DNA of 64,000 nucleotides from Bacillota bacterium (lineage in GTDB: Bacteria > Bacillota > Clostridia > Christensenellales > CAG-917). Shown here one piece after another: positions 2,025 through 39,026 of the stretch. Both the position numbers and the translations under genes were made by a program. Location: the NCBI GenBank assembly GCA_023665365.1, contig JAMPEA010000001.1:83914-147913 (forward strand). Direction: 5' to 3'. The notes below the pieces were generated by a model. That model saw nothing but the letters and a program-made list of their open reading frames with translations, was not told where the DNA came from and ran no database searches. The stretch's first letter is position 1. Each line of letters begins with the position of its first letter.

Positions 2025-2348
2025 ATATGCGAGATTAGTCTGTAAGCCGAGTTCTGTCTTAGACGGTCATCTATCTAGATACCGCATCTCTGCGATATTC
2101 AAGCGATGTGCGGAGCGTGCGGGCAACACTTATGCTCCAATCTTGCATCGGGGTGGGGTTTACATCGCGCATTGTCGCCAAATTGCGGGTGAGCTTTTAC
2201 CTCGCCTTTCCATCCTTACCGCATACGCGGCGGTTTTTTTCTGTTGCACTGTCCTTAAAGTCGCCTTTACAGGGAGTTACCCTGCACCCTTGCCCTGTGA
2301 TGCTCGGACTTTCCTCGAATATTTCACGCGACCGTCCGGCTAACTCGC
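2025..2348 (-). ncRNA. rnpB: RNase P RNA, bacterial type A
   Basis: Minus strand contains GAGGAAAGUCCGAGC, CAGUGCAACAGAAA..ACCGCC, GGUAAGG..GAAAGG..GGUAAAAGC.CACC, GUAAACCCCACCC and ACAGAACUCGGCUUACAG in the order seen in E. coli M1 RNA. The P1 helix is GCGAGUUAG (2348..2340) paired with CUAAUCUCGC (2038..2029). Confidence 0.93.
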
Positions 2349-2354
2349 AAAATT

Positions 2355-2383
2355 GTTATAGCATATTTTTTATATGTATGCAA
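2355..2383 (-). promoter_or_regulatory. Sigma-A type promoter of rnpB (TTGCAT-17-TATAAC)
   Basis: -35 at 2383..2378 and -10 at 2360..2355. The predicted start is G2348, the first nucleotide of the P1 strand. Confidence 0.6.
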
Positions 2384-2423
2384 GCACATTGCTTGCAGAA
2401 TTTAGCTGCGGACAGTAATTAGA

Positions 2424-2457
2424 TAAAAAATACGAGTTAGTCCGTCCGGCTAACTCG
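2424..2457 (-). terminator. P1-like hairpin plus U tract at the repeat junction (copy 1)
   Basis: Minus strand reads CGAGUUAG-CCGGACGGA-CUAACUCG (perfect 8 bp stem) followed by UAUUUUUUAU. Confidence 0.55.
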
Positions 2458-2534
2458 CAAAATTGTTATATCATATTTTTTATATGTGTGCAAGCACATT
2501 GCTTGCAGATTTTTAACTGCGGATAGTAATTAGA

Positions 2535-2568
2535 TAAAAAATACGAGTTAGTCCGTCCGGCTAACTCG
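2535..2568 (-). terminator. P1-like hairpin plus U tract at the repeat junction (copy 2); first terminator met by recN transcription
   Basis: Same hairpin and U tract as at 2424..2457. It lies about 60 nt downstream of the recN stop. Confidence 0.55.
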
Positions 2569-2623
2569 CAAAATTGTTATATCATATTTTTTATATGTGT
2601 GCAAGCACATTGCTTGCAGATTT

Positions 2624-4315
2624 TTATTGCAAGCTATCCTTATATCTCTGCGCCCATGCTTTCATTTCTTCGGCGTGCGGTATGGCAAACCTACTGTAAT
2701 CGTTGCCGCCAATCAGACGCGCCACCTCGTCGGTATCGTCGTCGAGTAACGTCACGTGCGTAAGCGTCTTTCCGTTTTCGGTGGATTTACTTATCAAATA
2801 ATGGCTGTCCGCCATTGCCGCAAGGCTCGGCATATGCGTGACTGCGATGACTTGACGACCGCGGGATATATTGCAAAGTTTTTCAGATACCACAGCAGAG
2901 ATATTGCCCGAAATCCCCGTATCTATTTCGTCGAAAACCATAGTGCCGATGCCGTCAATACCCGCAACTATATTTTTGAGCGCAAGCATAAAACGCGACA
3001 TTTCACCGCCGGATATAATCTTTGCGAGCGGTTTAAGCGGCTCTCCGACGTTCGGCGAAATCAAAAATTCCACCGTATCCGCACCGTTTGAGGTTATATC
3101 GTCAATTTCTGTTGCGGTTTTAACGTCAACCTTAAAAGTCGAGCCGCCCATGCCGAGGTCTTTCAACTCTTTAATTATGGATTTCTCAAACTCGACTGCG
3201 ACCTTAATGCGCAAAGCGGTCAGTTTTTGCGCACATTCCAAAAGACGCTCGCCGCTCTTTTTGATTTCTCTTTCGAGTATTATAACGCGGTCGCCCGCAT
3301 TCGACAAAACGTCGGCTTCTTCCTTGGCTTTGACGTAAAAATTTTGCAAGGACTCGTAATTGCCGCCGTACTTTCTTAAAACTGCGCGGACTTCTTCAAG
3401 CCTGCTTTCGATTTTGTCTGCCGAGCGACTGTCGAAATCGAGCTTGTCAAGCATATCTGAAAGCGTTGCGCTGATATCCTCGATTTCGAGTTTTGCGCTG
3501 TCAAGCCTGTCGGTGAGCGCGGGAATATCCTCGTCGTACGACGCAATCGTATTGAGCACCGATGCCGCGCTTTTAAGCTCAGCGCCTACACCGCCATTAT
3601 CATAGCCGTCAAGCGCTGACTTTGCCGACTGCAATGCCGACAAAATCTTTTCCGTATTGCGTATACGTTTGCGTTGGGCAAGCAAAGTTTCCTCCTCGCC
3701 CTCTTCAACGTTTACGCGCTCGATTTCTTCGAGTTGATAATTCAGTATATCGAGCCGTCTTTCTCTCTCGGCGCTGTCGCCGTATCTCGATAGCTCGCGC
3801 TTGAAATCGCTATATATATTGTAGGCTTTTAGAGTATCTAATTGGGCGTTTTTGATTTTACTTTCGCCGATAGTGTCCAAAAGCGCGATGTGCGTAGAAC
3901 TTCTGAGCAATGATTGATGCTCGTGCTGTCCGTGTATATCGACAAGCAATTCCGTAAGCCCTTTGAGGATTGAAAGCGTCGTAACTCTGCCGTTTATTCT
4001 GCATTCGTTTTTGCCCTCGGCTGTCATCTTGCGGCGTAATATCAAAATATCTTCCGCTTCTATGCCGACGTCGTCGAGATAGGTTGAAATCTGCGGATTT
4101 AAATACTCCTCGAAAACAGCCTGCACAACCGCATAATCCGTTCCGTAGCGTATAAGAGTTTTGTCCGCCCTTTCGCCGAGAACGAAATTAAGCGAGTCTA
4201 TGATGATAGACTTGCCCGCGCCCGTTTCGCCGCTAAGAATATTCAGCCCGTTTTCAAGCGTAAGTTCAAGCTTGTCTATCAAAGCGACGTTTTCAATGCA
4301 CAACTGTCTCAGCAT
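2624..4315 (-). CDS. recN: DNA repair protein RecN
   Basis: 563 aa. N-terminus is MLRQLCIENVALIDKLELTLENGLNILSGETGAGKSIIIDSL (Walker A). It has an SMC-like coiled coil, a C-terminal GGEMSRFMLALK signature and a DEIDTG Walker B. Confidence 0.95.
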   Translation of the reverse strand: MLRQLCIENVALIDKLELTLENGLNILSGETGAGKSIIIDSLNFVLGERADKTLIRYGTDYAVVQAVFEEYLNPQISTYLDDVGIEAEDILILRRKMTAEGKNECRINGRVTTLSILKGLTELLVDIHGQHEHQSLLRSSTHIALLDTIGESKIKNAQLDTLKAYNIYSDFKRELSRYGDSAERERRLDILNYQLEEIERVNVEEGEEETLLAQRKRIRNTEKILSALQSAKSALDGYDNGGVGAELKSAASVLNTIASYDEDIPALTDRLDSAKLEIEDISATLSDMLDKLDFDSRSADKIESRLEEVRAVLRKYGGNYESLQNFYVKAKEEADVLSNAGDRVIILEREIKKSGERLLECAQKLTALRIKVAVEFEKSIIKELKDLGMGGSTFKVDVKTATEIDDITSNGADTVEFLISPNVGEPLKPLAKIISGGEMSRFMLALKNIVAGIDGIGTMVFDEIDTGISGNISAVVSEKLCNISRGRQVIAVTHMPSLAAMADSHYLISKSTENGKTLTHVTLLDDDTDEVARLIGGNDYSRFAIPHAEEMKAWAQRYKDSLQ

Positions 4316-6603: not shown

Positions 6604-7377
6604 TCAGTCGTTTTGTTCGTCGATATTCTTTTCGTCGGACGCGCGCTTCACTTCCTTATTGGATTTCTTTTGCAAACTATCCTTTTTGCGGATTTTGCGC
6701 TCGTCCCTATTGAATATCGACACTATGCGAGCTACGAACATAACGAAATCTTTGGAGTTGTTTATGGCGATATTTTTCATAAACGCCTTGCCGCCTATCG
6801 TGACTGCGGATACCACTGCCGAGATGATGATTGTAAGCCACCTTTGCCACTCATCGCCGAGCGAAATTGCGATTTTGACAACGACCGCGGCAGAGCACGC
6901 ACCCGATATGATGCCGAAAATATCGCCGATTACGTCGTTACAGATACTCGACACAGTGCCGCTGTTTCGCACAAGCCAAAGCGCGGTCTTTGCGCCGTGT
7001 ACCTTTCTCGACGCCATAGAAGCAATGGGCGCAATATCGCATGAAGTCACCGCCACGCCGATGGAGTCGAAAAGTATACTGGCGAGTATCAAAAACGCGA
7101 GCAGCAATATGATAATCACTATCTGCTCGGCAGAAGCCGTAAGCTCGCTTAAAAAACTGAAAAAGCCCGCCAATACGAACGAAATGACGGATGCTTTGAG
7201 CCACCAAATATTGCGTTTTTTCTTTACCTTTTTGCGCTTGCCGTCAGCCGACTCGGAAGTTTTGGCTATTTCCTTGTCAAGTGGTTGCGCAGACTGAGCC
7301 GACACGCGTTCCGGCACAGCGGGCGTGTTGTCTGAATCGTCTTGAACGCTTAAATCTTTATCGTTTAAAGTATCCAA
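6604..7377 (-). CDS. Four-TM membrane protein with basic N- and C-terminal tails; candidate OapA-like partner of the upstream large ncRNA
   Basis: 257 aa with a TTG start (AAGGAG 4 nt upstream). Four hydrophobic helices, a KRKKVKKKR patch before TM1, an NDVIGDIFG (DxxxD) motif in TM3 and a lysine/arginine-rich C-terminal tail. It lies directly upstream of tlyA-nadK-argR-recN. Confidence 0.6.
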   Translation of the reverse strand: MDTLNDKDLSVQDDSDNTPAVPERVSAQSAQPLDKEIAKTSESADGKRKKVKKKRNIWWLKASVISFVLAGFFSFLSELTASAEQIVIIILLLAFLILASILFDSIGVAVTSCDIAPIASMASRKVHGAKTALWLVRNSGTVSSICNDVIGDIFGIISGACSAAVVVKIAISLGDEWQRWLTIIISAVVSAVTIGGKAFMKNIAINNSKDFVMFVARIVSIFNRDERKIRKKDSLQKKSNKEVKRASDEKNIDEQND

Positions 7378-7442
7378 AATGCTCCTTGTAATCTATATTA
7401 TGTAGCCTAATGCTAACGTATGCTCCAATAAATATATCCGCC

Positions 7443-7787
7443 CAAGCAAAAGATTTTGCGAATGTTGCGGGAGTTGCTATGTCGGCAAAAGTGAACAGCA
7501 AAAATCTTTTGCGCAGTAGGACAAGGAAGCCTCACCCTACACTTGTTTTGATTTTCAAGCGCCGCAGGCGCGTCACCAAGCAAAAGATTTTGCGAACGCA
7601 GCGGGAGTTGCTACGTCAGTAAAAGTGAACAGCAAAAATCTTTTGCGCGGTAGGACAAGGAAGTCTCGCCCTACACTTGTTTTGATTTTCAAGCGCCGTA
7701 GGCGCGTCACCAAGCAAAAAATTTTGCGAACGTTGCGGGAGTTGCTATGTCAGCAAAAGTGAACAGCAAAAATCTTTTGCGCGGTAG
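7443..7787. repeat. Tandem 134 bp repeat, about 2.6 copies, rich in GCAAAA-N2/3-TTTTGC palindromes
   Basis: Units start at 7443, 7577 and 7711 (caagcaaaagattttgcgaa...). Copies differ at a few positions. No credible ORF is present. Confidence 0.95.
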
Positions 7788-7789
7788 AT

Positions 7790-8440
7790 GCAACAAAATC
7801 AAGTCACGGCTTTGGCAAAGCAAAATTTTTTTGCTTTGTCGTGCCGTTTACGCTGATTTTGTTGCGAGGTGGCAACAACTTGGGTAAACCTTGCGTCTTA
7901 GGTTCGGTAGGATTTCCCTGTGCGAAAACTTGCCGTCGCCGTGCAAGACGTTTCCGATTACTTCGCACATTCTTGCGAAAACCGAATCGCCACTTAGTAC
8001 ACACTATAATCCCCAAGTTGTTACGCGAACGAACAGTCTAGAAGATTTCCTTGGCAGATTCCCTCCGACCTTATCTTTTTTTGCAAAGCGGATTTCGATG
8101 AGCAATCGCCGATGCGTATTGGCCATACGGCAAGAGCGTGAATCTCAAATCCCTCCGCCTCACTCAAAGCAGGCTACACTGTACACAGCACGTAAGCACC
8201 GCATAAACAGGTTTCACCCCAGTCAGTAGAGGATTTGCGCCTCTACCGAGTTGGGTCTCCACGGCAGTTGGGTCGTGATTTGTATGCCATTACAAGTCGC
8301 CCAAAAACCTTAACTCCCAGCAACAGCCCCGATTTGGGCAAAAGAAGCCATCACCAGAAACTTCATCGATATGCCCTTCGACGATATTTTACCCCCGTCT
8401 CCGGCACGGCGGAATCTGACTAGAATACTGCGCCACCATT
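7790..8440 (-). ncRNA. Large (about 650 nt) structured non-coding RNA, OLE-like by size and gene context
   Basis: No long ORF in any frame. A consensus promoter sits just upstream. Long-range complementary segments: GGUGGC (8437..8432) with GCCACC (7873..7868), and an 11 bp pair at 8022..8012 with 7884..7874. Local hairpins include 8226..8246. A roughly 75 nt 3' rod spans 7790..7865 (12 bp outer stem plus 10 bp inner stem). The context (RNA, 4-TM protein, tlyA-nadK-argR-recN) matches what I recall for OLE RNA loci. Confidence 0.6.
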
Positions 8441-8446
8441 TATATT

Positions 8447-8474
8447 ATTATATCAATACTTTAAAATATGTCAA
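8447..8474 (-). promoter_or_regulatory. Consensus sigma-A promoter (TTGACA-16-TGaTATAAT) driving the large ncRNA
   Basis: -35 TTGACA at 8474..8469 and extended -10 TGATATAAT ending at 8447. It lies directly after the recG stop. The predicted start is near 8440. Confidence 0.7.
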
Positions 8475-35858: not shown

Positions 35859-36227
35859 TTATAAATTTGACAATTCATTATTAAAGCCTTGAAACCGCAA
35901 AAGAATATTATGCAGTTCGGCTATTTTGTTTTTTAAAAAGTTCATATTATTTTTATGCTTTACAATATCGTTTTTCTTAAAAAAATGATGGGCTAAATAA
36001 TTACGTTTGTCCAAAATGTATTCTAATTCTTCAATATCTTGCTTATCAAATAAATTTGTTCGTTCAGCATATCCTTTAATTTGTCCCATTGTCATAGATT
36101 GCATATCTTCAAAAAGATTATCAGCATTTGTATTTTGTGCTCTACATACTATTAGGGCTAAATTCCATTCTATGTATTGAGCATTTTCCAATATTTCGCC
36201 TACCAAATTATAAATTGTGTTAATCAT
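35859..36227 (-). CDS. Small all-helical HEPN-like protein (Rx4H motif RNYLAHHFF), HepT/DUF86-like
   Basis: 122 aa from ATG 36227 (AAGGCGG 8 nt upstream). The motif is LEYILDKRNYLAHHFF. The gene is AT-rich and lies 13 nt downstream of the 2-TM gene. Confidence 0.5.
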   Translation of the reverse strand: MINTIYNLVGEILENAQYIEWNLALIVCRAQNTNADNLFEDMQSMTMGQIKGYAERTNLFDKQDIEELEYILDKRNYLAHHFFKKNDIVKHKNNMNFLKNKIAELHNILLRFQGFNNELSNL

Positions 36228-36240
36228 TATAAATACCGCC

Positions 36241-36717
36241 TTAATGTAAAATTTTATTTCCAACACGCAATGTATAATTATTAAGCGTTAACGTACCTAC
36301 TTTCAAATTAACTCTTTCACCATTCAAATCGCATTCTAATGGGCGAGCACCAAAGAAAGAGCCTGTATGCTTATCAACTACCGCATCATCAAGCAACAAA
36401 TATGCACAACTCCACCCCAAATAAACACTGATTTCGTGCCCTTGATATGAATATGAATGGAACTTTACTCCGACAAGGGAACACAGCCAAAACACTATAC
36501 AAAAAATATCCCAAGTACCGAACAAATATAGAGGCACGATATACTTATCTTTTGTATAATACCCATATTCTTCTAAATATTCATAATATATGACTTCTTT
36601 ATCATTTATTGCAAGACTAACAAGAATTATAGTTATTATTGCAGAAATTAGGAACAACACGTTCCATACTATTTTAACAGTATTTTTCCTTTTTTGAAAG
36701 CGTTCTTTTTCCGACAT
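36241..36717 (-). CDS. Two-TM membrane protein with a roughly 70 aa C-terminal soluble domain, unknown family
   Basis: 158 aa from ATG 36717 (GAGGTG 8 nt upstream). TM helices are IVWNVLFLISAIITIILVSLAI and LYLFGTWDIFCIVFWLCSLVGV. The gene is AT-rich. Confidence 0.55.
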   Translation of the reverse strand: MSEKERFQKRKNTVKIVWNVLFLISAIITIILVSLAINDKEVIYYEYLEEYGYYTKDKYIVPLYLFGTWDIFCIVFWLCSLVGVKFHSYSYQGHEISVYLGWSCAYLLLDDAVVDKHTGSFFGARPLECDLNGERVNLKVGTLTLNNYTLRVGNKILH

Positions 36718-36744
36718 AACTAAGCACCTCACATATGTATAGTA

Positions 36745-36777
36745 ATATAAAAAGCGTGTTCCACTGAGAAACACGCT
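36745..36777 (-). terminator. Intrinsic terminator inside the 5' leader of the 2-TM/HEPN cassette
   Basis: Minus strand reads AGCGUGUU-UCUCAGUGG-AACACGCU followed by UUUUUAUAUU. It ends about 20 nt before the SD of the 2-TM gene. Confidence 0.6.
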
Positions 36778-36798
36778 GAAAAACGCACCTCTCAATGT

Positions 36799-36939: not shown

Positions 36940-36971
36940 AAAAAATAAAAAGCCACTATTTAGTGGCTTTT
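36940..36971 (-). terminator. Intrinsic terminator of tRNA-Ser
   Basis: Minus strand reads AAAAGCCACUAAAUAGUGGCUUUU followed by UAUUUUUU. It lies 6 nt after the tRNA CCA end. Confidence 0.75.
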
Positions 36972-36977
36972 ACATGA

Positions 36978-37070
36978 TGGCGGAGAAGAAGAGATTCGAA
37001 CTCTTGAACCGCTTGTGACGGTTACGCGATTTCCAGTCGCGCGCCCTCGACCAAACTAGGCGACTTCTCC
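36978..37070 (-). tRNA. tRNA-Ser (anticodon GGA), class II with a long variable arm and encoded CCA
   Basis: Minus strand reads GGAGAAG-TC-GCC-TAGTTTGGTCGA-GGGC-G-CGCGA-CTGGAAA-TCGCG-TAACCGTCACAAGCGGTTC-AAGAG-TTCGAAT-CTCTT-CTTCTCC-G-CCA, which folds as a cloverleaf. Confidence 0.93.
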
Positions 37071-37200
37071 AAAAGATTTGTGGAGAAGGCGTCCAAAGGT
37101 TTCACGACTTCTCCAAAGATTTATTGGGAAGTCGTCCAAACGTCCAGCGACTTCTCCAAAGATTTGTGGGAAGTCGTCCAAAGGTCTTCACGACTTCTCC
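37061..37200. repeat. Tandem 43/44 bp repeat (3 units plus the tRNA 5' end); each unit starts with the first 10 nt of tRNA-Ser
   Basis: cgacttctcc recurs at 37061 (the tRNA itself), 37105, 37148 and 37191. The spacers are about 85-90% identical. Confidence 0.95.
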
Positions 37201-37385
37201 AAAGATTGTTTAAAAAAAATGGGTTGCAGTTGAAGGAAGAATGGACAACAAAACCATTTCCCTCAACTGTACATCATTTTGAGGATTTGAACCCTCTATA
37301 ACCCAACGAAAAGATTATATCTTAACGGCGGCGTTTTGACAAGTAATTACGACGATTATTTTGTCGAATTTTGTAAAATTTCGTA

Positions 37386-39026
37386 TTACTCGCTACGCTT
37401 CAAACTTCTGAAAGTATAACCCTCTTTCTGTCCTATGCGGATTTGCAAATTGAGTTGGTCGATAAACTCCTTATTAGACGAAGTTTTGACAATCATATTG
37501 ATGAGGTTTTCGGTAGCTTCGGCGTTGTCGGTGTTTGAAAGCATCTTTCTTATGCCCCAAGCCGCTTCGAGTTCGCTTGACGTAAGCAGGAGTTCCTCCT
37601 TGCGCGTACTGCTCTTTGCGAGGTCGATTGCAGGGAAGATGCGCTTTTCGGACAGTTTTCTATCAAGGTGGATTTCCATATTGCCTGTGCCCTTGAACTC
37701 CTCGAAGATAACGTCGTCCATACGACTGCCCGTCTCTACGAGCGCGGTTGCGATGATGGTAAGCGACCCGCCCTTATAATTTTTTTCGGGATTGGCTTCG
37801 AGATTTCGCGCCGAACCGAAGAAGCGCTTTGGGCTGTGGAGCGCGCCGGGGTCTATACCGCCCGACAGCGTTCTGCCAGTCGGCGGAATGGTGAGGTTGT
37901 ACGCGCGCGCGAGCCTTGTAAGACTGTCGAGCAAGATAACTACGTCCTTGCCGTTTTCCACAAGCCGCTTTGACCTTTCAAGCAACATTTCCGCGGTTTT
38001 GGTGTGGTGCTCGGGAAGCTCGTCGAAAGTGGAATATACCACCTCGCCTTTTATCGAGCGTTGCATATCCGTGACTTCTTCCGGACGCTCGTCGATGAGC
38101 AAAACTTTGAGCACAACGTCGGGATAGTTTTTTGAAATCGAGCCCGCAATCATTTTGAGGAGCGTAGTTTTACCTGCTTTTGGCGGAGACACTATTATAG
38201 CGCGCTGACCTTTGCCGACGGGAGATACGAGGTCGATACAGCGCATCGCGTACTCGCGCGGTTGATTGGATACTTCGAGGCGCAAGCGCGTTTGCGGATA
38301 CACGGGGGTTAGCGTATCGAAATTAGGACGGGCTTTGGCGTTTTCGACGGTATCGCCGTTTACGGAAATCACGTCGTAAAGCGGCGCAGGTTTGTTTTCG
38401 TCCTGACCTTTTCTGCAAAGCGCGACAACGTAGTCCCCCCTGCGCAAGCCGAACTGCCTTATCTTTGAGGAGCTGACGTATGCGTCGAGCTCGCAACACT
38501 CCCCGCTTTTGACTCTCAAAAAGCCGTAGTTATCGGGGTTGATTTCAAGATAGCCCTCGCGCGTAAACTCTCTGTCCTCTCTGAAAGCCGAGGTCGAACC
38601 GAACTCGTTGAGGTCCTGCACCTCGTCGGTGATGACGGATTTAAACTCAAAGTTGAAATCCGTCCTTTGGCGGGTATCTCTGCGCTCTCTGACGTTGCCG
38701 TCGTAAGGCTTGCGGACATAGGGCTTGCGCGGAGCGCTCGGGTCGAAGCTCGGCTTATACTCCTGCTTCTTTTCGGCGACATTGCCCGTCTTAGGCTCGA
38801 CATTTTTAGGCTCGCTATTTGAGCTGTCAGCACCCGTAAATTTTTTCGGACGTCCGACGCGCGGCGGGGTCGGCGGAGCCATCAGTCCGTTGGAAATTTT
38901 ATAAATCAAATCCATAAGTTCCGCCTTATTCAGCTTAGTAGGCGCAGACACTCCCACCTCTTTCGCAATGTGACGAACGTCGAAAATGCTCATTCTGTCA
39001 AGTTCTTGTTTTGTGTATTTATGCAT
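37386..39026 (-). CDS. rho: Transcription termination factor Rho with a roughly 115 aa N-terminal insertion domain
   Basis: 546 aa. [15 protein letters not shown] (Walker A), [25 protein letters not shown]. Confidence 0.95.

Follow-up and report, generated by a model that had tools for sequence, protein, structure and literature searches.

Partial tandem duplication of the ends of stable-RNA genes has been known for decades in Escherichia coli, at the transfer RNA (tRNA) gene tyrT and at rnpB, which encodes the RNA of ribonuclease P (RNase P). For rnpB, a partial duplication in the 3' flank was reportedly described by Reed and Altman in 1983. Acceptor-stem mini-helices and model hairpins are, in addition, substrates of bacterial RNase P. 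Here we analyse a window of 64,000 nucleotides (nt) from a Bacillota bacterium (Clostridia, Christensenellales; contig JAMPEA010000001.1, positions 83,914 to 147,913), in which a tRNA-Ser(GGA) gene is directly preceded by a tandem array of short units that each carry a copy of the tRNA 5' end followed by its complement.

We checked the two E. coli loci for comparison. At tyrT, a 178-bp repeat starts in the 3' end of the tRNA-Tyr gene, each unit ends in a 19-nt copy of that 3' end (AATCCTTCCCCCACCACCA), and the units are annotated as 'RtT sRNA, processed from tyrT transcript' (sRNA, small RNA). At rnpB, a second copy of the last ~50 nt and of the terminator can be seen by eye after the gene; this repeat was not scored by Tandem Repeats Finder (TRF). 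Template switching, in turn, can create perfect RNA hairpins in one event (PMC8794818).

We identify the array with high confidence as a tandem repeat of variable copy number, made up of fold-back pseudo-5'-ends of the neighbouring tRNA-Ser(GGA) and located in transcribed spacer. Its sequence suggests, with moderate confidence, an origin by snap-back template switch followed by unequal recombination. We consider, with low to moderate confidence, that its role is that of discarded leader RNA with no essential function. No earlier description of 5'-leader fold-back tRNA repeats was found in Rfam or in the literature that was searched.

Structure and transcriptional setting of the array

All features of the array are read on the minus strand. 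Three tandem units of 43, 43 and 44 nt lie directly 5' of the tRNA gene (Table 1), and each runs from a copy of tRNA nt 1-10 (GGAGAAGTCG) through a few variable nucleotides and a D-loop-derived TTTGGAC to the reverse complement of nt 1-10, closing with a copy of ~10 nt of the native leader. This anatomy had been proposed in an initial annotation of the DNA, and the sequence confirms it, including the three units before the tRNA and the trailing ACAAATCTTT(T), for which unit 2 has AATAAATCTTT instead. TRF delimits an array of period 43 with 3.4 copies (score 207); the fourth, partial copy is the 5' end of the tRNA itself, and the array overlaps tRNA nt 1-10. Exactly four occurrences of GGAGAAGTCG were found in the window, all at the array, where 0.10 would be expected, and none of 100 shuffles reached four copies. 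The locus is identical in two independent metagenome-assembled genomes (MAGs; L001 and L002, GCA_023666605.1 and GCA_023666095.1), so the array is not an assembly artefact.

The tRNA-5' copy of every window unit is predicted to pair, from nt 1 onwards, with CGACTTCCC or CGCCTTCTCC, giving folds of -13.7 to -13.9 kcal/mol (z -2.4 to -2.6 against dinucleotide shuffles). The stems of units 1 and 2 consist of 2 + 8 bp with a bulged A, and that of unit 3 of 7 + 3 bp with a U8.C mismatch. The initial annotation had described hairpins of 9-10 bp with loops of 13-14 nt; the predicted stems have 10 bp, and the predicted loops are slightly smaller, at 11-12 nt. It had also noted, correctly, that the last unit reproduces the tRNA acceptor stem in its outer 7 bp, with an unpaired A behind them. 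CCA is carried by no unit. No tRNA was detected within the units by ARAGORN, which calls one tRNA in total, or by Rfam E-value search, and a T-arm or CCA remnant is not visible. The promoter and terminator scan returned no sigma-70-like promoter and no terminator-like site in 37071-37200, in agreement with the annotators' view that the units hold no convincing promoter. By eye, the A/T-rich spacers contain weak -10-like hexamers only, without a -35 element.

Table 1. Coordinates of the array, its transcription unit and other features of the window (z-scores as in the text).
Feature	Position	Strand	Remarks
Array of three units	37071..37200	-	43 + 43 + 44 nt
Array as delimited by TRF	37061..37207		see text
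Unit 1	37158..37200	-	GGAGAAGTCG + TGAAGACC + TTTGGA + CGACTTCCC + ACAAATCTTT; fold -13.9 kcal/mol, z -2.39
Unit 2	37115..37157	-	GGAGAAGTCG + CTGGACG + TTTGGA + CGACTTCCC + AATAAATCTTT; fold -13.7 kcal/mol, z -2.60
Unit 3	37071..37114	-	GGAGAAGTCG + TGAAACC + TTTGGA + CGCCTTCTCC + ACAAATCTTTT; fold -13.9 kcal/mol, z -2.46
tRNA-Ser(GGA)	36978..37070	-	CCA encoded; source of the copied 5' segment; ARAGORN; Rfam RF00005, 54.2 bits
Sigma-A-type promoter	37314..37342	-	TTGTCA-17 nt-TATAAT; 11/12 consensus positions
Conserved structured RNA, 88 nt	37220..37307	-	GTTGGGTT...CAACCCA; closing helix P1, variable hairpin P2, long conserved hairpin P3
T8 run and first native tRNA leader copy	37201..37219	-	AAACAATCTTT; read from sequence
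Intrinsic-terminator-like hairpin, then T-run	36948..36971	-	terminator scan; closes the transcription unit
rho	37386..39026		Pfam; array lies downstream
Open reading frame after the array	36241..36795		no Pfam family
Open reading frame after the array	35859..36266		no Pfam family
Low-GC segment	34001..38000		GC 0.38-0.40 versus ~0.49 elsewhere
RNase P RNA parallel, tandem repeat	2332..2626	-	111 bp x 2.7; TRF score 548; gene ~2026-2348, Rfam RF00010
OLE RNA	7853..8452	-	
Tandem repeat beside OLE RNA	7442..7787		134 bp x 2.6; top TRF score
CNNM-domain membrane protein gene	6604..7377		

The array sits within an apparent transcription unit, in the order promoter, 88-nt structured RNA, T-run, leader copy, three units, tRNA and terminator-like hairpin. 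The last ~10 nt of AAACAATCTTT reappear as the inter-unit spacer ACAAATCTTT. The promoter, whose position is kept in all relatives bearing the structured leader RNA, probably drives that RNA, the units and the tRNA together. From this promoter and the structured RNA upstream, we infer that the array is leader RNA of a structured-RNA/tRNA-Ser co-transcript.

The structured leader RNA is itself a candidate new RNA family; Rfam E-value searches assigned it to no family. It occurs in 22 distinct versions among 47 loci, is 71-88 nt long and always lies upstream of tRNA-Ser(GGA). RNAalifold recovered P1 and P3, with G-C to A-U exchanges in P3; the sequence of P2 is lineage-specific, yet it remains a hairpin (assessed partly by eye). 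A contig scan for this RNA used a pattern one base off the window species (GATGTACAG versus GTTGTACAG) and returned three relevant loci plus one chance match, in a Methylocystis MAG. In the leader RNA of L029, P2 reads GGAGAAGTTGTTCTCC, that is, tRNA nt 1-8 plus their complement, a miniature fold-back of the tRNA 5' end.

Variation among relatives and at other stable-RNA genes

Syntenic loci were reached through rho homologues at 79-90% identity, and a metagenome scan with tRNA nt 1-30 gave 86 loci with 83 distinct upstream regions. At the rho-linked loci the tRNA is essentially unchanged and the number of units varies: there are two in L003, three in L004-6 and in L007 and L008 (annotated as uncultured Christensenella sp.), one in L010-12 and none in L009, L013 and L015. 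Units, one to four per locus, are present in 30 of the 38 distinct upstream regions that bear the structured leader RNA and absent from the other 8. Zero-unit relatives include L041, L055, L064, L082 and L085, besides the last three named. Among ~44 regions of other Firmicutes, in which the same tRNA 5' end stands behind an ordinary promoter without the leader RNA, one comparable case was found (L073). The unit family is restricted to the region upstream of this tRNA-Ser in Christensenella-like gut Clostridia, almost always together with the leader RNA. In L073, a different, 88-nt partial 5' copy (tRNA nt 1-23, a GC hairpin and an A-run) lies ~90-180 nt upstream of tRNA-Ser, with an older, degenerate copy farther upstream.

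Copy number differs even between close relatives. Members of the L020 group carry four, two or one units with upstream flanks that are 97.8-99.3% identical, and L086 (three units) and L088 (one unit) are ~99% identical on both sides. The contigs of L002, L003 and L005 (rho loci) and of L103, L104, L106 and L107 (RecN/RNase P loci) stop within a few hundred bases of the repeat regions; such arrays may break short-read assemblies.

We distinguish two types of unit. The commonest, B type, is ~60 nt long and reads GGAGAAG TC GCGT TTAC TTGGTAC TGC GTACCAA AC ACGC T CTTC(C/T)CC, followed by a purine and a leader-like spacer of 8-16 nt. The 43-nt A type of the window is without a counterpart of the 3' half of the inner hairpin, and both types occur together in L003 and L004. 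The widespread ~60-nt form may be ancestral. A search of 102 loci returned no occurrence of the B-type core TGGTAC-N3-4-GTACCAA outside the arrays. A dispersed mobile element of the miniature inverted-repeat transposable element or repetitive extragenic palindrome kind was considered and rejected, as the core and the 10-mer are confined to the arrays. Upstream 5' copies were also absent at 12 other tRNAs in the fetched DNA, a sample too small for inference.

In every one of the 38 distinct units the predicted fold pairs the 5' copy, starting at nt 1 in 31 cases. The stem is followed by A in 31 units and by G in 5, and T stands at position -1 in 36. The comparison across relatives that the initial annotation had suggested thus has a divided outcome, with unit number varying from 0 to 4 and stem complementarity kept throughout. 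The 5' arm is almost invariant, and bulges and mismatches sit in the 3' arm. Compensatory pairs are few (GCGT/ACGC versus GCAT/ATGC in L020; TGGTAC/GTACCA versus TGGTAT/ATACCA in L029); pair counts were not based on the MAFFT alignment of B-type units, which misaligns the 3' arms. When halves were swapped between lineages, native units gave -17.3 and chimeric units -16.7 kcal/mol, and 181 of 2000 permutations were as good. This difference is not significant, which indicates that the hairpin is conserved mainly through conservation of its sequence; 19 columns are invariant in 27 distinct B-type units.

Similar repeats adjoin other stable-RNA genes. In the window, each 111-bp unit at the 5' end of the RNase P RNA gene combines a promoter-like TTGCAC-17-TGnTATAAC with the first 17 nt of RNase P RNA, a stretch complementary to nt 1-9 and a T6 run, and its hairpin is predicted at -14.9 kcal/mol (z -4.44). 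The promoter-like sites were not called by the promoter scan, because the -10 hexamer ends in C. From its sequence, each unit would in effect be a promoter-hairpin-terminator mini-gene upstream of the real gene. The tRNA-Ser units are not terminator- or attenuator-like, the terminator scan being blank across them, whereas the RNase P units do carry the T6 run. Among RecN-linked relatives, a single 34-nt fold-back unit separates the promoter from the RNase P RNA in L103 and L104, and L106-L109 have none; in L105 the RNase P gene is inverted, and its 3'-terminal ~50 nt and terminator occur in tandem repeats instead.

Repeats are also found on the 3' side of tRNA-Ser. Tandem units of 126-189 bp lie downstream of the gene in L059, L102, L028, L100, L085, L055, L015 and L003, and the window is without them. 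In most of these loci each unit terminates in a copy, full or partial, of the tRNA-Ser 3' end; in L059 (6832-7213), 164-bp units each close with a perfect 21-nt tRNA 3' copy (CGAATCTCTTCTTCTCCGCCA) and are followed by a terminator. The three top-scoring TRF repeats of the window (615, 548 and 207) each adjoin one of its three non-coding RNA genes, for OLE, RNase P and tRNA-Ser. End duplication appears to be a recurrent, ongoing process in this lineage of gut Clostridia, with tRNA-Ser and RNase P RNA each affected at both ends. The highest-scoring repeat lies between the OLE RNA and the CNNM-domain membrane protein gene, and its comparison with the OLE 3' end gave only a weak alignment with a shared CTACCG...AAGA motif.

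The array lies downstream of rho, and neither of the next two open reading frames (ORFs) after it has a Pfam family. The low-GC segment downstream of the tRNA contains small ORFs without Pfam families, as well as TfoX_N and GrpB genes. Between strains whose upstream flanks are 98-99% identical, the DNA 3' of the tRNA can be aligned at only ~70-75%. The region downstream of the tRNA looks like a hot spot for variable islands.

Origin and role of the units

The 3' arm of the units is complementary to tRNA nt 8-10 (CGAC) in addition to nt 1-7, and at that place the tRNA 3' end reads CTT. About 25 nt of the B-type 3' half mirror the 5' half, with nothing resembling a T-arm, a variable arm or CCA. 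An A-type unit matches tRNA nt 1-25 (...TTTGGTCGA) followed by the reverse complement of nt 1-7, the exceptions being 5-8 variable nt in the loop and a single T-to-A change. The reverse complement of tRNA nt 1-10 reads CGACTTCTCC, and by inspection the junction shows microhomology between TCG (nt 8-10) and CGA (nt 23-25). The 3' arm would appear to fit better as a reverse-complement copy of the 5' arm than as a remnant of the tRNA 3' end. We propose that during replication a nascent strand, having already copied the leader and nt 1-25 of the tRNA, could snap back at this microhomology, copy nt 7-1 in reverse to give CTTCTCC, and rejoin the template upstream of the leader, such that a single event would yield one unit of hairpin plus leader. 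The direct repeats (leader plus GGAGAAGTCG) would then let the array expand or contract by unequal recombination or slippage, and the same process probably acts at the ends of other stable-RNA genes of these genomes.

Other routes to the same units have to be weighed against a template switch. The initial annotation had suggested decayed remnants of tandem tRNA duplications, with each unit an internally deleted tRNA. Duplication is broadly right, but descent from whole gene copies by a deletion of about nt 26-65, with the true 3' acceptor strand as 3' arm, is improbable in our estimation. The outer 7 nt of the 3' arm (CTTCTCC) do have the sequence of the tRNA 3' acceptor strand, with a single unpaired purine after them, and one B-type group reads CTCTTCCCCGCAA after the mid helix where the tRNA has CTCTTCTTCTCCGCCA. 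Such decay does not fit the complementarity to nt 8-10 or the mirrored B-type half, which bears no likeness to T-arm, variable arm or CCA; furthermore, the units are invisible to ARAGORN and Rfam as tRNA, and the RNase P units follow the same fold-back logic with nt 1-9 only. It is very improbable, in turn, that the hairpins were made from RNA, by a reverse transcriptase that ran off the end of a mature RNA 5' fragment, snapped back to copy it, added an untemplated A and had its product recombined into the leader. This idea is suggested by three independent unit families (tRNA A-type, tRNA B-type and RNase P) whose inverted copy stops at the mature 5' end, at nt 1 in most tRNA units and at nt 1-2 of the copied segment in the RNase P units, and by the extra unpaired A after the stem in 31 of 38 tRNA units; if true, it would amount to retro-duplication of stable-RNA ends in bacteria. 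Least credible to us is an element acting at the DNA level, be it an operator or iteron array or the recombination-site remnants of a tRNA-targeting integrative element. The B-type core is a perfect 6-bp palindrome (TGGTAC-N3-4-GTACCA), conserved in sequence and not in pairing alone, and the DNA downstream of tRNA-Ser is variable and, in the window, low in GC. Against this, the palindrome spacing is 3 or 4 nt, the palindrome is missing from the window units, the array is part of a transcribed leader, and a Pfam search of nine neighbouring ORFs returned no integrase domain. Known tRNA integrases also duplicate the 3' part of the gene and not the 5' part. Remnants of integrase att sites were rejected on these grounds, namely that the repeats copy the tRNA 5' part and that the nine ORFs are without an integrase domain.

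Two further candidates were dismissed. Repeats of type III toxin-antitoxin systems (ToxI-like) are tandem ~36-nt repeats directly 5' of a ToxN-type endoribonuclease gene; here a tRNA and a terminator come after the array, and the next ORFs have no Pfam family. A known RNA family was also rejected, as Rfam searches at the gathering threshold and by E-value returned tRNA only, and microRNA-like matches were hairpin noise far below threshold.

As to their role, the units would be discarded as leader RNA once RNase P cuts at tRNA +1. Each pseudo +1 may be a further RNase P cleavage site, as in nearly every unit U stands at -1, the stem is closed by G+1:C and the base behind it is an unpaired purine. 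Each hairpin, folding locally during transcription, would sequester its surplus acceptor 5' strand before the real tRNA emerges, and it is probably owing to such local co-transcriptional folding that these duplications are tolerated. On balance, we lean slightly towards regarding the array as a tolerated, fast-turnover by-product of fold-back partial duplication of the tRNA 5' end, without essential function and processed away. This view is favoured by the variable copy number of the units and their absence from some relatives, by halves that show no significant co-adaptation, and by end duplications of a similar kind at other stable-RNA genes, including tyrT and rnpB of E. coli.

Several observations weigh against such a by-product. 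The B-type core is conserved like the neighbouring structured RNA, while the spacers and part of the 5' side vary freely. Likewise, TTTGGAC is conserved in the A-type loops, and the 5' half of the loop is variable even inside one array. Conservation of the core looks like purifying selection, unless recombination through conserved flanks has carried arrays from one species to another; the leader RNA and spacer of L062 are identical to those of L064 despite only 81% identity over the upstream 1.2 kb. Units are still present in most lineages, even though loss is easy and regain hardly possible, and the copy numbers come from short-read assemblies, in which arrays are possibly collapsed and underestimated. 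In both tRNA unit types the mature +1 is where the inverted copy stops, and in the RNase P units it stops at nt 1-2 of the copied 5' segment, which a pure accident of DNA does not predict. Finally, an equilibrium model of the full window precursor, in which co-transcriptional order, tertiary structure and processing are left out of account, gives the genuine acceptor stem a probability of 0.02, compared with 0.99 when the units are removed. Tolerance must therefore rest on co-transcriptional folding or on fast processing. Equilibrium folding does not support the idea that the hairpins neutralise the extra strand: units with shuffled 3' arms gave the acceptor stem a probability of 0.10, compared with 0.02 for the native ones.

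The conservation of the units invites the alternative that they are selected processing elements, that is, acceptor-stem mimics cut by RNase P at the pseudo +1, which would set the 3' end of the upstream RNA, clear the leader and perhaps release a trans-acting mini-helix as decoy or sponge for a tRNA-binding factor; decoys and processing signals had also been raised in the initial annotation. We regard this as possible, though unlikely. It agrees with the folding of every distinct unit and with the U at -1 and the unpaired A or G after the stem in 36 of 38, with a core that is invariant across deeply diverged lineages, and with the near confinement of the arrays to tRNAs co-transcribed behind structured RNA; the RtT sRNA processed from tyrT provides a precedent. 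A selected element is harder to reconcile with the eight leader-bearing regions that have zero copies, with copy-number polymorphism at upstream flanks that are 98-99% identical, and with halves that are not significantly co-adapted. Of the features of an RNase P mini-helix, most units have the G+1:C closing pair, U at -1 and an unpaired N73-like base, but none has the 3' RCCA or the ~12-bp stacked acceptor/T-stem with a T-loop, the window stems being of 10 bp with a bulge or mismatch and a D-loop-like loop. The window A-type units, moreover, have no counterpart of the conserved inner hairpin, and the same kind of unit at the 5' end of the RNase P RNA itself is left unexplained by the substrate idea. 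The folding model raises another alternative, a register-shift 'anti-acceptor' switch tuning the amount of mature tRNA-Ser(GGA), in which the 3' arm of the last unit would hold the tRNA 5' strand and an upstream 5' copy the tRNA 3' strand. The tRNA would then stay in a fold that cannot be processed, until a signal or a processing event freed it. At equilibrium, the tRNA 5' strand is indeed predicted to pair with the leader, through the 3' arm of the last unit, at 0.85, and the 3' strand, with an upstream 5' copy, at 0.94; the pairing of the last unit with the real tRNA 5' end that the initial annotation had raised is thus thermodynamically plausible. Shifted pairings also appear in the global minimum free energy (MFE) fold, and comparable competition is predicted in several relatives. 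We nevertheless consider a switch quite unlikely. The equilibrium probability of the acceptor stem varies from 0.01 to 0.96 between lineages, zero-unit alleles occur, and no ligand- or protein-binding element was identified. The partner within each unit's own hairpin is transcribed before the competing one, so local folding should be kinetically favoured, and the energy model is without tRNA tertiary structure. The modular fold lies 2-14 kcal/mol above the global MFE, and for long RNAs the global MFE is routinely several kcal/mol below that of modular folds.

Comparison with known systems

What appears to be new here is the self-pairing form on the 5' side, its spread in Christensenella-like bacteria and the structured leader RNA that occurs with it. 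The arrays offer a natural test bed for the effect of extra acceptor-strand copies in a precursor on tRNA folding and on the choice of site by RNase P, as well as for template-switch mutation as a source of new RNA hairpins. They are also hypervariable markers, and they draw attention to a conserved structured RNA that is undescribed and presumably transcribed together with tRNA-Ser. Should the units be true functional mini-helix RNAs, their interest would be considerably greater.

The array resembles tyrT-rtT in being a tandem repeat that overlaps the end of a tRNA gene and in carrying a copy of a terminal segment in each unit. According to their annotation, the RtT units are co-transcribed with the tRNA and processed out; in the window, co-transcription is suggested by the placement of the promoter and terminator. 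The window array differs in lying on the 5' side and copying the 5' strand, in units of 43-44 nt instead of 178 nt, and in pairing each copy with an inverted copy, whereas the RtT unit has neither such closure nor unusual stability (z -0.33). The window thus shares with terminal-segment repeats the abutting gene end and the terminal copy in each unit, but not the 3'-side location. The counterpart proper of tyrT-rtT is found in the 3'-side repeats of tRNA-Ser in relatives such as L059.

The RNase P repeats compare with E. coli rnpB in a similar way, as a terminal segment of the RNase P RNA is repeated beside the gene. L105 shows the same arrangement as rnpB, with the terminator and on the 3' side, and the window has its 5'-side counterpart, in which the 5' end is repeated together with a promoter and closed by an inverted copy and a T-run. 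With RNase P mini-helices, the tRNA-Ser units share the G+1:C pair at the start, the preceding U-1 and the following unpaired purine; they differ by having no 3' RCCA or mimic of the T-stem and loop, and by a 10-bp stem with a bulge or mismatch.

The likeness to template-switch mutations (PMC8794818) lies in a 3' arm that is a reverse-complement copy, in the TCG/CGA microhomology and in the existence of hairpin-free relatives. At the tRNA-Ser locus, by contrast with those mutations, the inverted copy would have been coupled to a direct duplication of the leader and followed by tandem amplification.

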